Below are positions 1 to 52,015 of a DNA stretch of 64,000 nucleotides, in pieces (the stretch's first letter is position 1; each line of letters begins with the position of its first letter). The position numbers and the translations under genes were made by a program. This DNA is from Bacteroidales bacterium UBA4893 (GTDB lineage: Bacteria > Bacteroidota > Bacteroidia > Bacteroidales > P3): positions 1,023-65,022 of the forward strand of contig DHCV01000027.1 of NCBI GenBank assembly GCA_002399025.1. Direction: 5' to 3'. The notes below the pieces were generated by a model. It was not told the DNA's origin, ran no database searches, and saw only the letters and a program-made list of their open reading frames with translations.

Positions 1-195
1 TATCGCTTTTTATTCATTTTTGGACATATAAATCACGATTTCTATCACTTTTTATTCATTTTTGAACCAAAAATCACGATTTCCACCACTTTTTATTCAT
101 TTTTGGACATATAAATCACGATTTTTATCACTTTTTCTCTATTTTTGGACTAAAAATTACGATTTCCATCACTTTTTATGAATTTTACTGCTTAG
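1..195. repeat. Tandem array of 41-42 bp units, at least 4.7 copies, cut by the window edge (a degenerate extra unit runs to about 231)
   Basis: Unit starts read at 31, 72, 114 and 155 (AATCACGATTTCnAnCACTTTTTATTCATTTTTGGACATATA-like). Bases 1-30 match the 3' part of the unit at 84-113. Confidence 0.85.
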
Positions 196-285
196 AAATC
201 CAGATTTTTGTTCCTATTACTCTTTTACAGCAAGTTAGACTTGCACAATATTATTATTTGGTTAAGCTAAAAAATCTTATCAATA

Positions 286-3785: not shown

Positions 3786-4988
3786 TTAGATTATCTTTGA
3801 GAATATGCAAGAAGAGTCGTTTCCGCCAAAGCCAAAGGAGTTTGTCATTATATGTTTGATGTTTGGCAATTGAATTGTTCTTTGAGCAGGGACCAAATCA
3901 ACATCTTCCATTGGAGTTTTGAAATTGAGGTTGGCAGGAATAAAATTATTCTTAAGTGCAAGAATGGATATTACTGACTCAACTGAACCAGCAGCACTTG
4001 TTGTGTGTCCTGTGAAGGATTTGGTTGAGGAAACATAGGGTGGATTTTCTCCAAAGACCCTCTTAATCGCTGAGGCTTCACTCGAATCATTATTATCTGT
4101 TCCTGTCCCATGAGCATTAATATAGTCAATATCTTCTGCTGAAAGCCCACTATCTTCCAATGCTCTTTTCATTGACAGAAAAGCACCCTGACCATCGGGT
4201 GAAGAAGCCGTTTGATGAAAAGCATCACAAGTATTTGCATATCCGCTAAGCTTACAAATTGGCTCAACTCCCCTTTCCTTTGCCGATTCCATTCCCTCCA
4301 AAACAATATATGCAGCACCCTCACCCAAGTTCAGCCCTTGACGGTTCTTGTCAAAAGGTTTGCAAGCCTCCTTATCCAAAATCATAAGAGTGTTGAACCC
4401 ATTGAGATGAAACTTACTCAAACATTCAGTTCCTCCCACCACTGCAATATCAACATATCCTGCCTTAATTAGGTTTGCACCAAGAATAATTGCATTGGCA
4501 GCCGAAGAACAAGCTGTGGAAATTGTTGTTATGAAATCAAACCCTCCAAAATAATCCGCAATATCCTGAGTTGAGGCAGCACAATCGTGAAGAGAAATAT
4601 ACTCATCCTTAGAATTATTCTGGAAAAACTCCAAATAGAACTCCTCGTTCTTCTCCATTCCACCAACAGTTGTCCCACTTATGAAAGCAATCCTTTTGGG
4701 AGTATCCTTATCTATCTTGGCTTGCTCCAAAGCCTCTCTTAGGGCAAGCATTCCAAGAAGGGTTGTTCTGGTTAGAGGATTTTGGGGATTATAATTTAAC
4801 AAAGAAAGCATATCTTTGTCGCTCAATCTTACTTCGCTGACCGGAAGCGAAGAATGAATGGTGTTCAAGTGTTTCAATTCCCCAATGGCTGAGTTCTGAT
4901 TAATCAAGGATTGAAGAGTTTCATCCTTTCCCAATCCCAAACCAGTGAGAATACCCATTGCCGTAACAAGAATATCGTTCAAAGCCAA
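3786..4988 (-). CDS. Beta-ketoacyl-ACP synthase (FabF-like KS)
   Basis: 400-aa ORF with the active-site Cys motif TISTACSSAANAI, His motifs INAHGTGT and GHTTSAAG, and C-terminal SFGFGGNDSS. Confidence 0.9.
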   Translation of the reverse strand: MALNDILVTAMGILTGLGLGKDETLQSLINQNSAIGELKHLNTIHSSLPVSEVRLSDKDMLSLLNYNPQNPLTRTTLLGMLALREALEQAKIDKDTPKRIAFISGTTVGGMEKNEEFYLEFFQNNSKDEYISLHDCAASTQDIADYFGGFDFITTISTACSSAANAIILGANLIKAGYVDIAVVGGTECLSKFHLNGFNTLMILDKEACKPFDKNRQGLNLGEGAAYIVLEGMESAKERGVEPICKLSGYANTCDAFHQTASSPDGQGAFLSMKRALEDSGLSAEDIDYINAHGTGTDNNDSSEASAIKRVFGENPPYVSSTKSFTGHTTSAAGSVESVISILALKNNFIPANLNFKTPMEDVDLVPAQRTIQLPNIKHIMTNSFGFGGNDSSCIFSKII

Positions 4989-4991
4989 AAC

Positions 4992-5249
4992 CTATTTCTT
5001 TCTGTTGTTCTTAATGTACTCTGCCATTACGCTAACACTCTTGAAAATCTCCTTTCCCTGAGCAGCATTTTCTAATTTAATGCCGTAGTTCTTTTCGAGC
5101 AAAACAATAAGCTCTAAGGCATCAATAGAATCCAAGCCCAAACCTTCACCAAACAAAGGAGCATTGCTGTCAATATCCTCAGGAGTTATTTCTTCAAGAT
5201 TTAAAACTTCAATAATCTCTTTTTTAAGCTCTAATATTAAATCTTCCAT
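4992..5249 (-). CDS. Acyl carrier protein
   Basis: 85-aa ORF with the phosphopantetheine attachment motif LGLDSIDALEL. Confidence 0.9.
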   Translation of the reverse strand: MEDLILELKKEIIEVLNLEEITPEDIDSNAPLFGEGLGLDSIDALELIVLLEKNYGIKLENAAQGKEIFKSVSVMAEYIKNNRKK

Positions 5250-18205: not shown

Positions 18206-18682
18206 CTAAATTACATTATCTATTGTAACTATATACTCTTTTAACTTTACTCTTGCTCTAAAAATATTAATTTTCACTTGCTCCTGGCTCAAATTAAGAA
18301 TATCTCCAATTTCATTATAGGAATATCCTTCGTAGTCTCTCAAAAGGATTGATGCCTTTTGTATTTGTGGTAGCTGTTCTAAGGCTTCATTAAGCACTTC
18401 GTTAATGTCGTTGTAGGAGTTGGAAGTGATGGTTTGAGCCTCTGGAAGATTATATTTCAAAGAGTTATATTTTATATTATTTATCATTATATGGTAAGCC
18501 GATGTAAATATGTAGCTTTTAGCTTTTAAAAAATCAACATCTTCTCTTTTTTCCCAAAGTTTAGTAAAGGCTTCTTGAAGAATATCCTTTGCAGCATCAC
18601 TATCCTTGATGTTTTTCACAAGGAATAAAAACGCAGAATCGGAATAATTATCAATACAAAGGTTGTATTCTTTCTCAGTCAT
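18206..18682 (-). CDS. ECF-type RNA polymerase sigma-70 family factor
   Basis: 158-aa ORF with a region 2-like segment (ILQEAFTKLWEKRE) and a region 4 HTH (YEGYSYNEIGDILNLSQEQVKINIFRARVKLK). Confidence 0.85.
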   Translation of the reverse strand: MTEKEYNLCIDNYSDSAFLFLVKNIKDSDAAKDILQEAFTKLWEKREDVDFLKAKSYIFTSAYHIMINNIKYNSLKYNLPEAQTITSNSYNDINEVLNEALEQLPQIQKASILLRDYEGYSYNEIGDILNLSQEQVKINIFRARVKLKEYIVTIDNVI

Positions 18683-18910
18683 TAATAGTTTTTTTAGAAA
18701 TGGGAGGCTTGATTTAGCCTCCCAAACAAAAATTAATCTTTACTCTTTAATTTGTTTTCTATAAATAAGACAAGCGAAGATAAGAAAAAGTTACACAACG
18801 GATAAAAAAATTGTTTAATTAGGGGAAAATAAACAAGACTTAAATGTAAAAAAACGAAGTTTAGAACTTTTAAAACAGGGATTAGAACTTTTTTTATAGG
18901 GAGTTGATGT

Positions 18911-18996
18911 CGGAATCATGCCATGATTTACTCGGAATCATGCCATGAAATGGATGAAATCATGCCATGATTTGACCGAAATCATGCCATGATTCC
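18911..18996. repeat. Four copies, 22-bp period, of the 15-bp perfect palindrome AATCATG-C-CATGATT (copy 2 lacks the last two bases)
   Basis: The palindrome cores were read at 18914-18928, 18936-18948, 18958-18972 and 18980-18994. Confidence 0.9.
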
Positions 18997-19145
18997 AACA
19001 TTAAAACGAAGATTAAAAAGTTTGATGTAGTAATAAACTGTTTTTAAACGAAGTATAACGAGAAAAAAGTCAAGAAAAAACTTGAAAAAACAGGGAATTT
19101 TTACTCTAAAAAAAGGGTTATTTTTTAGGGAAAAAAGATATAGAA

Positions 19146-50787: not shown

Positions 50788-51405
50788 CTAAAATTGATAA
50801 ACAAGCTTTAAATTAGAATAAGAAATTATATCTGAACAAAATATCAAATCAGAGAATAAAGGAAGATTATGCCTTCTCCCTTGACTTAAATCTATATTTA
50901 ATGACGTTCGGAAGATGTGCCATACAAGCTCTGTACAATAAAAAGAAGTTGTGTCTTGCAAATCCATTGAAACATCAAATAACGGACTCCTATATATTAT
51001 TTCTTTCACTTTACTATAAATAAGAATTGTGTCTTCCTGTTGTAAATCTGCTCTGTAAATACCTCCTGACAATGCTTTATCAGTTGCAAAAAACTCTTCT
51101 ATCAACTCAACTTTTATCTTGTCCTTTTCATTCTTATTGCTTTCATTGGGAACTGCATGAACTACTCTCCATGCTGAATCAAACCAAATAACAAGACCTA
51201 CATGAGAATAGATACTCTTTTTATCAATGCCTTTAACAATTTCACTTTCAACACTTTTTCCCTCACGAAAGACTATGTCCCCCGTTTGAAAAACTAAATT
51301 AGAAGGAATTTGCCAGTTATTATGATCTTCTTTACATGAGAAAAATAAGAAACAAACAAAGCAAAACAAGCAAATAACCTTCTTCATTAGTTTAATCAAA
51401 AACAA
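50788..51405 (-). CDS. YiiX-type permuted papain-like (NlpC/P60 superfamily) lipoprotein
   Basis: 205-aa ORF with the lipobox FFSC (a shorter start, MKKVICLF at 51387, is possible). It has the His region SHVGLV and the Cys region FYCTELVW in permuted order. Confidence 0.65.
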   Translation of the reverse strand: MFLIKLMKKVICLFCFVCFLFFSCKEDHNNWQIPSNLVFQTGDIVFREGKSVESEIVKGIDKKSIYSHVGLVIWFDSAWRVVHAVPNESNKNEKDKIKVELIEEFFATDKALSGGIYRADLQQEDTILIYSKVKEIIYRSPLFDVSMDLQDTTSFYCTELVWHIFRTSLNIDLSQGRRHNLPLFSDLIFCSDIISYSNLKLVYQF

Positions 51406-51417
51406 TTTATTTATATA

Positions 51418-51850
51418 TTAAATTGTTTCATCAATTATTTTTCCTGACTGATAACCATTAACTTCTAAAGAACCCAATGTTTTAGGCTCACTTCGAAGTT
51501 CTTCTCTTAGTTTTTTACCTAAACGGAAAGTTACATTAACTCGCTTTATTGTATCGGCATTTGCCTCTTCCAAAGTATTAACGCTTCGAGCATTCAATGT
51601 TACGCTAAACTCTCCAAACTCATCCAAATCAACTCCTCTACCATCTTTAAAATACTTTCCCATTACAAAAAAAGAAATTATCAATAGCATTCTTAATATC
51701 CCCTCTTGAAAGAGAGGACAAGTCAGTCATATCATCATAAATCTGATTAATCTTGACTTTTTTCGTCTTTTTCTTTATTACAAGAAACTTATTTCCGGGA
51801 TTAAGTCCTGTTACGATCTTTCTTAATACCCTGATATACTCTATTGCCAT
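51418..51850 (-). pseudogene. HU-like (Bacteroidota HU_HIG-type) DNA-binding protein gene interrupted by a +1 frameshift in an A7/T7 run
   Basis: ORFs 51647-51850 (MAIEYIRVLRK...AIDNFFF) and 51418-51690 (...VMGKYFKDGRGVDLDEFGEFSVTL...) overlap. Removing one base of the run at 51667-51673 fuses them into one ~144-aa protein that is collinear with the family. Confidence 0.6.
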
Positions 51851-51945
51851 AATTTAAATATTTTTAATTTGTAATTAAATATCTATCTCTTAATGTTACT
51901 AAAATTCCCTCTTTTATCCTCATAATAAGTTTTCAGTACTATTAA

Positions 51946-52015
51946 AACAAGATTATGAGGCTACTATAACAAGATTATGAGGGCTTGAAAAGCTTGTTTT
52001 AGAAGCCTCATAATC
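51946..52015. repeat. Two 22-bp-spaced copies of AACAAGATTATGAGG plus inverted copies CCTCATAAT(C)
   Basis: Direct copies at 51946-51960 and 51968-51982. Inverted copies at 52006-52015 and 51918-51926. Confidence 0.8.

Follow-up and report, generated by a model that had tools for sequence, protein, structure and literature searches.

The array of four palindromes that separates a ygiD-like gene from an ECF sigma operon in the window (by which we mean the whole stretch of 64,000 nucleotides analyzed here) is one copy of a genus-specific, dispersed and rapidly exchanged composite repeat. Its palindromic core and the spacing of the palindromes are under strong constraint, and arrays of this type are linked to HU-HIG paralogs by position and by abundance, in a clade-specific manner. 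We consider it probable, from sequence comparison, that the array is a MITE-like dispersed element that acts as the binding platform of a sequence-specific HU-HIG dimer.

The array lies within a spacer that was described in the first-pass annotation as 463 bp long, in agreement with its coordinates (18683-19145). The spacer and the two genes that border it contain the following features:

18206..18682, minus strand: ECF sigma factor gene, downstream of the array (Pfam Sigma70_r4_2, Sigma70_r2, Sigma70_ECF)
18683..18805, minus strand: promoter-proximal block, with GTAAC (18790-18794), CGCTTGTC (18769-18776) and a leader hairpin (18702-18723)
18851..18892, no strand: one of the two arms that flank the core, built from 21-bp units (AAACGAAGTTTAGAACTTTT / AAAACAGGGATTAGAACTTTT; TRF period 21)
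18906..18913, no strand: inner inverted flank GATGTCGG, pairing at 6/8 positions with CCAACATT at 18995-19002
18914-18928, 18936-18950, 18958-18972 and 18980-18994, no strand: core array of four palindromes, consensus R-N-W-TCATG-S-CATGA-W-N-Y, 22 bp from center to center
18995..19002, no strand: inner inverted flank CCAACATT, partner of 18906-18913
19000..19145, no strand: the other arm, of degenerate 21-bp units and A-tracts, up to the ygiD stop codon
19146..19928, minus strand: LigB/ygiD-like dioxygenase gene, upstream of the array (Pfam LigB, E = 5.6e-26)

Four palindromes at steps of 22 bp had been claimed, and the window sequence, a pattern search and TRF all bear this out. AATCATGCCATGATT is found at 18914, 18958 and 18980, and the copy at 18936, rightly singled out as imperfect, differs at 2 positions (AATCATGCCATGAAA), so that the four sites between 18914 and 18994 share the form AATCATG-C-CATGAWW and every step is exactly 22 bp. 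TRF assigns a period of 22 bp and 3.9 copies to 18910-18994, and a search of the window for the pattern with at most 2 mismatches yielded 5 matches where 0.93 were expected (0 of 100 shuffles gave 5). The inner flank GATGTCGG corresponds to the GTTTTGATGTAAAGA / TCTTAGATTGAAAC ends of other array copies, and units like AAACGAAGTTTAGAACTTTT / AAAACAGGGATTAGAACTTTT are common to the flanks of all 12 arrays found in the genome. The AAACGAAG words reported at 18852, 19004 and 19046 are present at those positions and are parts of these arms of 21-bp units; of the two reported AAAACAGGGA(T/A)T words, the one at 18872 is in place, while the other (AAAACAGGGAAT) starts at 19087 and not at 19091, an offset of 4 nt. 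Together, 18806-18913 and 19000..19145 form a species-variable composite of ~340 bp, and the arm at 19000..19145 has no counterpart in the array-less spacers of two congeners, G011 and G013.

The array is located 153 nt past the ygiD stop codon and about 120-200 bp upstream of a conserved ECF-like promoter block. The sigma gene is followed by a probable anti-sigma gene and then by a gene for a DUF2807 protein, and we likewise found no regulator gene adjacent to the array beyond the sigma/anti-sigma pair. The array could in principle be an operator for a dedicated dimeric regulator of the sigma operon, as its symmetry and helical phasing fit dimer binding and its position upstream of the sigma gene is retained in five species: the orthologous ygiD-sigma spacer contains TCATG sites in the genome of the window (G000, 4 sites), G009 (5), G003 (5), G008 (3) and G014 (4). 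Against such a role, the promoter-proximal block (the final ~125 bp of the spacer, next to the sigma gene) is kept in 7 of 7 species compared, array or not. In two of these congeners (G011 and G013), the spacer is only 204-205 bp long and retains the block and the leader hairpin without the array, which is replaced by an intrinsic terminator. Since the promoter block is kept with or without the array, any effect of the array at the sigma locus would be architectural, as a boundary or as upstream modulation, and not that of a private operator. The hairpin itself (GGGAGGCT/AGCCTCCC) was correctly placed at 18702-18723, 19 nt ahead of the sigma ATG (18682), and its pairing survives A>C and T>G changes (GGGCGGC/GTCGCCC in G011, G013 and G014). 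The ECF-like GTAAC...CGCTTGTC motif is conserved as well, ~90-110 nt upstream of the sigma ATG, and the conservation of both hairpin and motif is independent of the array. A simple promoter and terminator scan of the spacer returned nothing.

A search for further sites, which had been proposed as a check, was carried out in the genome of the window (2.33 Mb, 32.4% G+C, 41 contigs; the window is C17:1023-65022). This genome contains 12 arrays with the core TCATG-S-CATGA, distributed over 10 contigs, and all 37 of their 37 internal spacings are 22 bp. Four sites are the rule, seen in 10 of the 12 arrays; the other two have six and three sites, respectively. The 11 classifiable copies are all intergenic, with none inside ORFs: 8 are located between co-directional genes, 3 between convergent genes and 0 between divergent genes. 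The genes that flank them are unrelated, and those downstream have no common function.

In every array, the arms consist of 21-bp units of the type TTAAAC-nnnn-GTTTTRATCT that are inverted between the two sides. Five copies are homologous over ~265 bp, down to the sequence of each of the three spacers and a variant form of the second site, ATCATCCCATGAT, which indicates that they were copied as whole units; the array at C6:51603 was excluded from this comparison of flanks, as a run of N (C6 ~51050-51250) interrupts the gene on its left. MITEs are short (<~600 bp), non-coding, multi-copy and dispersed, and the composite likewise measures ~265-311 bp, contains no ORF and is present in 12 copies on 10 contigs. 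Inversion is seen only in the arm units and in the inner flanks that adjoin the core (GTTTTGATGTAAAGA / GTTTCAATCTTAGAA), and neither outer terminal inverted repeats nor a partner IS were evident among the array copies of this draft assembly, in which multi-copy ORFs are few. A screen of the multi-copy ORFs of G000 for a transposase found none, and turned up small HU-HIG paralogs instead. We discarded RAYT/IS200 (PF01797) as a mobilizer, given that G000 has no match to it and that its distribution among congeners does not track the arrays, and also an identity with REP/REPIN-RAYT systems, given the lack of a Y1 gene in G000 and the presence of direct arrays of 3-7 sites rather than inverted pairs. 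A long perfect hairpin across the whole element was discarded too, because the spacers are not complementary and the G/C pattern at the dyad is inconsistent between copies.

The TCATG arrays are part of a larger set of periodic sequences. TRF reports 249 rows of period 21 and 76 rows of period 22 in G000, which merge into 198 arrays. Four more palindrome families share the layout and the TG-S-CA center (GAAATG-S-CATTTC, AAGGTG-S-CACCTT, ACAATG-S-CATTGT and ATAATG-S-CATTAT), and perfect 13-mers of the TG-S-CA palindrome class number 137 in this genome, versus 13 for a TG-W-CA control. Repeat periods of 41-44 bp, or double units, are also over-represented, both in the window (2-209) and in the whole genome, as is a period of 69 bp (13 TRF rows, 4.8 kb in total).

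Of 16 congeners, 10 contain adjacent TCATG pairs, with 8 to 83 of them in each genome. Outside the genus, such pairs were found in one genome of a second genus and were absent from all 23 other genomes that represented the family and order; a reversed-pattern control had zero matches in the genomes sampled. In a public genome collection, nearly all matches belonged to MAGs of uncultured Bacteroidales or Bacteroidetes. The arrays of relatives have 3-7 sites, with a mode of 4, and are located in 28 tandem, 10 divergent and 7 convergent contexts, a mix that is near background. In 24 of the 28 tandem contexts, the array is nearer to the upstream stop codon than to the downstream start. An apparent avoidance of divergent (promoter) spacers did not hold up, with 0 of 11 such copies in G000 but 10 of 45 in the relatives.

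Comparisons of orthologous spacers reveal a high turnover. One spacer on C39 carries TCATG arrays of different sub-types in G000 and G009 and none in G003 and G008, while the TCATG array in a C24 spacer of G000 is matched in G009 by a TAATGGCATTA array. Three further TCATG arrays of G009 correspond in G000 to an AGATG-family array, a non-palindromic 21-bp array and bare 21-bp units, respectively. In a single filled/empty pair (n=1), a 311-bp composite of G009:C6 is absent from the otherwise collinear G000:C30, and the junction has an imperfect direct repeat of ~9-10 bp, CAAAAAnAGAG, so that either an insertion or a deletion may underlie the difference. An alternative explanation is a purely selfish repeat of the MITE or minisatellite type, similar to BrickBuilt, that has no dedicated binder, with HU-HIG genes traveling with the repeats or attracting them, and with hairpin-templated correction and copy-paste keeping the palindromes perfect. 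Copies that are dispersed, intergenic and near-identical with common spacers, a filled/empty site with a short direct repeat, array families that are exchanged at the same spacers and gene contexts near background all speak for this explanation, as do the persistence of arrays in genomes without the cognate gene and the flipping of the dyad base between G and C in orthologous copies; the evidence against it comes from the constraint on the sites and from the HU-HIG genes, both treated below. One locus of G009 deserves mention in its own right (L198, G009:C19:39600-46200): identical five-site TCATG arrays at 1558-1656 and 4915-5013 bracket 3.2 kb of DNA with genes for an ammonium transporter, a porin-like protein and an AraC-type regulator. 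On its outer sides, this locus matches two different contigs of G000, and one of them (C14) begins with an array; the 3.2-kb segment may represent the gain or loss of a cassette through recombination between arrays.

The dispersal and turnover also decide on the operator suggested by the first-pass annotation. With 12 copies in the genome, gain, loss and swapping of arrays between species and 3 of 11 copies between convergent genes, the array is not a dedicated operator. Its sites are not confined to the promoters of a coherent regulon (convergent copies amount to 3/11 in G000 and 7/45 in the relatives, and the downstream genes are without common function), nor is the site conserved together with its promoter, as seen from the array-less spacers of G011 and G013. 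We therefore regard an operator array of the sigma operon as the least credible of the explanations, and a very improbable one. The other half of the suggestion, that a symmetric dimer recognizes double-stranded DNA and that several such dimers share one face of the helix, is supported indirectly by the 22-bp spacing, the symmetric 17-bp motif, the low information content of the spacers and the finding of a candidate dimeric binder. Helically spaced sites that are bound cooperatively by multiple dimers on one face are known from the 7-1-7 boxes of the Fur family, the metbox tandems of MetJ, the 22-bp iterons of plasmids and ParR/parC. Such arrays are found at one or few functional loci (a promoter, an origin or a partition site) and are not dispersed in the manner of MITEs. 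To our knowledge, the array sequence matches neither a Fur box nor any other named operator. More generally, palindrome arrays upstream of regulators in such genomes call for caution in annotation, as they are dispersed repeats rather than private operators.

A total of 426 sites from G000 and its relatives were compared. Part of this sample was chosen for having three sites at 22-bp spacing, and the unselected G000 set agrees with it (37/37 spacings of 22 bp). Of the distances between neighboring sites, 335 of 336 are 22 bp, the remaining one being 44. Every one of the 426 sites has T at -5 and A at +5, and the consensus is W at positions +/-6 and R/Y at positions +/-8. At the dyad, 231 sites have C, 192 have G, 3 have A and 0 have T, which makes the dyad base G or C in 423 sites out of 426. 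In the position profile of the family, each of the ~5 central spacer positions contributes only about 0.1 bit. A G:C pair in either direction at the dyad, a symmetric 17-bp motif, a rigid spacing of two helical turns and free spacers fit the recognition of duplex DNA by symmetric dimers, and are not as an RNA loop would predict.

This bears on the explanation that the array acts at the RNA level, being transcribed into a long hairpin that would serve as a terminator, an RNA stabilizer, an RNase III target or a protein sponge. Indeed, the folding energy of 18840-19060 as minus-strand RNA is -61.5 kcal/mol (z = -7.8), the arrays in tandem contexts tend to be nearer to the upstream stop codon (24/28), and at two loci the array-less orthologs have an intrinsic terminator at the position of the array. 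However, G and C are about equally frequent at the dyad and mixed within arrays, which is neutral for duplex DNA and not for an RNA loop. Likewise, spacers without complementarity and copies in both orientations and in divergent spacers argue against a functional transcript. Replacement of intrinsic terminators by arrays, hinted at by the two loci, was not borne out genome-wide: terminator-like hairpins downstream of genes are not depleted where arrays are present (26% versus 22% without arrays, p = 0.31). No Rfam family matched the array, for which a search returned only sub-threshold chance matches to miRNA and snoRNA models. Altogether, we judge an RNA element to be improbable, if somewhat less so than the operator.

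The second line of evidence for a protein-binding platform comes from the HU-HIG (PF18291) genes, of which G000 contains 21. We counted a gene as adjacent to an array if the 450 bp upstream of it contained one of period 20-24 and at least 2.5 copies. By this definition, 11 of the 21 HU-HIG genes follow an array, compared to 133 of the 1826 other genes of G000 (7%; odds ratio 14, p = 8e-8). The association persists when only genes with an upstream spacer of at least 300 bp are considered (11/13 HU-HIG genes versus 97/331 others, p = 8.5e-5). For all five TG-S-CA families of G000, an array of the same family lies upstream of an HU-HIG gene of one subclade, which is recognizable by the N-terminus MSKIFxxWKKKFK... 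and whose members are each found behind a different palindrome family. The pairs identified were the following:

C12:55007-55423, HU-HIG gene: array ATCATG, 102 bp upstream
C39:105851-106870, HU-HIG gene: array TATAATG upstream
C6:6843-7262, HU-HIG gene: array CGAAATG upstream
C22:51913 and C6:62640, HU-HIG genes: array AAGGTG upstream
C1:31562, HU-HIG gene: array AAAGATG-TG-CATCTTT upstream

The pairing extends to other species. In the TCATG clade, whose orthologs are 61-100% identical to the C12 protein, the gene is preceded by 4-6 TCATG sites in 8 of the 8 species with enough sequence, always at a spacing of 22 bp and with the last site 106-192 bp before the ATG, while the other HU-HIG clades have TAATG/CAATG, AAATG or AGATG sites upstream. 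On the HU-HIG protein tree, the six palindrome labels need 6 changes, the minimum being 5; as a gene and its upstream array can be co-inherited in orthologs, this agreement does not amount to independent proof. The code is also not strictly one-to-one, considering that the near-identical proteins G000_C39 and G009_C61 lie behind TAATG and CAATG, respectively. Homologs in other genera and unlabeled paralogs are preceded by further phased palindromes (GGTATATACC, GATGTACATC, AAACATCGTATGTTT, AAAGTTGCCGACTTT and GACATGGGTATGTC, as well as AAACATGGCATGTTT, TGGTAGGTACCA and CATTCTTGA-CGC-TCAAGAATG). In a comparison across the order, for which few congeners were sampled, 17 strong HU-HIG matches were counted here versus 0 in 14 other families, which shows the expansion to be lineage-specific.

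The paralog paired with the TCATG arrays, C12:55007-55423, is thus the candidate binder. Its protein of 138 aa scores 65.7 bits against Pfam PF18291 (cut-off 26.2) and 29.5 bits against PF00216, and phmmer aligns its residues 35-120 with classical HU, the Asn-Pro of the arm included. An AF2 model (pLDDT 87) has an HU-like core after an extra N-terminal beta-hairpin, and the best Foldseek match of this model is 4FMR, the HU-HIG prototype (E = 8.6e-6), followed by HU and IHF. The protein has the properties by which HU-HIG proteins and the DNABII fold are recognized, namely the PF18291 score and an HU fold with a beta-arm and arm proline. One position varies by clade, with W in the TCATG clade and G, A or S elsewhere, and aligns with an arginine of HU that contacts DNA where the arm begins. 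From adjacency, from the correspondence between clades and sites and from co-abundance, it seems likely that each palindrome is bound by a dimer of the C12 protein, and that four such dimers, aligned on one face of the helix, make up a bent nucleoprotein unit.

Co-abundance was assessed by relating the number of palindromes per genome to the presence of the matching paralog. All eight genomes with at least 24 TCATG pairs encode a TCATG-clade protein (8/8), and the six genomes without TCATG arrays have no such protein. One array-less genome of high quality, G007, retains a truncated remnant of the gene, encoding the C-terminal 73 aa at 81% identity (907-1125 of L178, G007:C14). Three genomes (G004, G006 and G014) contain 8-13 TCATG pairs but no detectable cognate ortholog. 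A second family behaves similarly, in that GAAATG-S-CATTTC sites are commonest in G010 (56), G009 (30) and G000 (24), the only genomes with an AAATG-clade protein; G007 has 18 GAAATG sites without a detectable cognate gene. The two families dissociate from each other, G010 being AAATG-rich without TCATG and G005, G012 and G015 showing the reverse. While the relatedness of the genomes inflates any p-value in this comparison, the double dissociation argues against simple phylogenetic confounding.

These results argue against a purely selfish repeat. The palindromes and their spacing are invariant even though the spacers within the same arrays have diverged, and self-correction would not keep one sequence across species. 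Moreover, in several genera the HU-HIG genes are preceded by palindromes specific to the paralog, the abundance of a family tracks its matching paralog with a double dissociation, and no transposase with matching ends and no Y1/RAYT gene were found in G000. In view of the evidence on both sides, we rate this explanation as unlikely, though it is by some way the most serious of the alternatives. In the explanation that we favor, the repeat is a lineage-specific composite of ~300 bp, in which inverted arms of 21-bp A/T-tract units surround 3-7 (usually 4) palindromes of the form RNW-TCATG-S-CATGA-WNY, set exactly two helical turns apart. Copies are gained, lost and exchanged in intergenic spacers, and would spread as MITE-like DNA does. 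The core would most likely be the cognate platform of a dedicated paralog of the HU/IHF fold, C12:55007-55423, which is encoded on another contig. One homodimer would bind and bend each palindrome, and four of them on one face of the helix would give rise to a compact nucleoprotein structure. Whether this extends to the expanded and fast-evolving HU-HIG family of Bacteroidota as a whole, so that its members are sequence-specific DNA benders, each paired with its own family of phased palindrome arrays at its own promoter and in MITE-like intergenic spread, and co-diversifying through symmetric arm changes around the TG-S-CA core, is a broader proposition whose truth we consider evenly balanced.

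The composite can be compared to several known systems. REP/BIME elements of enterobacteria, among them the IHF-binding RIP/RIB type, and REPIN/RAYT systems are extragenic palindromes that occur in hundreds of dispersed copies and in composite mosaics, and for some of them the bound protein is a nucleoid protein with the HU/IHF fold. The palindromes of REPs are imperfect, 20-40 bp long and set in inverted pairs, with a link to the Y1 transposase RAYT, and IHF is a single housekeeping protein rather than a radiation of paralogs with matching families of sites. Unlike REPs, the elements described here are phased direct arrays, and no Y1 gene is detectable in G000. Closer parallels are BrickBuilt and MITEPgRS/MITE464 of Porphyromonas gingivalis, intergenic repeats of the Bacteroidales of which BrickBuilt has 19 copies (Klein et al. 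2015, PMC4596501). BrickBuilt, a minisatellite within a MITE, consists of contiguous, non-palindromic 23-nt direct repeats, 1 to 22.8 per copy, flanked by terminal inverted repeats of IS5-like type (GAGACC...) with matches among the resident IS elements, and one of its copies, BrickBuilt_14, adjoins a gene for a PF00216 DNA-binding protein (PMC4596501, Table 1). Like these repeats, our composite is always intergenic, present in ~10-20 copies per genome and restricted to a species or genus, and has a minisatellite core (of 22-23-nt or 41-nt units in their case) between a leader and a tail, with a copy number that varies between strains. Unlike BrickBuilt, it combines 17-bp palindromes and free spacers at a strict 22 bp, usually four times, with arms of 21-bp periodicity, has no IS-like ends that we could find, and exists as several parallel palindrome families that are each tied to an HU-HIG paralog.

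With regard to the proteins, HU-HIG members have been considered unlikely to be sequence-specific transcription factors, and they were reported to have undergone lineage-specific expansion and to lack conserved genomic linkage, in the one dedicated study within the literature searched, which offered no more than a guess at their function (Burroughs et al. 2017, PMC5499826). The candidate binder conforms to the HU-HIG clade of the HU/IHF superfamily in its PF18291 and 4FMR matches and in the 21-copy expansion in G000, and departs from the published picture in a conserved linkage to phased arrays that, being non-coding, are invisible to gene-neighborhood analysis. Within the literature searched, this linkage appears to be new. 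Few DNA-binding families of Bacteroidota, a dominant phylum of guts and soils, are as expanded and as poorly understood as the HU-HIG proteins, and pairing paralogs with arrays yields a testable hypothesis on which protein binds which 17-bp site. It would also explain the 21-22-bp periodic DNA that fills long intergenic spacers in these genomes. If true, the pairs would amount to a layer of chromosome architecture that is lineage-specific and programmable, or else to a selfish pair of a new kind, formed by a binder and an array of its sites.

Some additional HU-HIG genes were noted along the way. The window itself contains a short HU-HIG-like ORF at 51490-51696 on the minus strand (PF18291, E = 4.8e-12), ~240 bp downstream of a 22-bp repeat, CTACTAAAACAAGATTATGAGG (51939-51982), which together may be another gene/array pair. 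The TAATG-clade protein (C39:105851-106870; L158/L204; orthologs in G003, G009, G015 and G016) is a conserved fusion of ~340-350 aa, in which the HU-HIG domain is followed by a hydrophobic helix and a ~190-aa domain with a beta-barrel-like ending (...LTLSLKF), an organization that suggests a membrane-tethered DNA binder. Finally, four HU-HIG genes of G000 (C24:115663, C28:10844, C28:40167 and C6:92111) are mutually at least 60% identical (MNYTIVERK...NPAPKGLV), and a non-palindromic 21-bp array (AAAAATATAAAGGAGATAAAT) from a widely dispersed family precedes one of the four.
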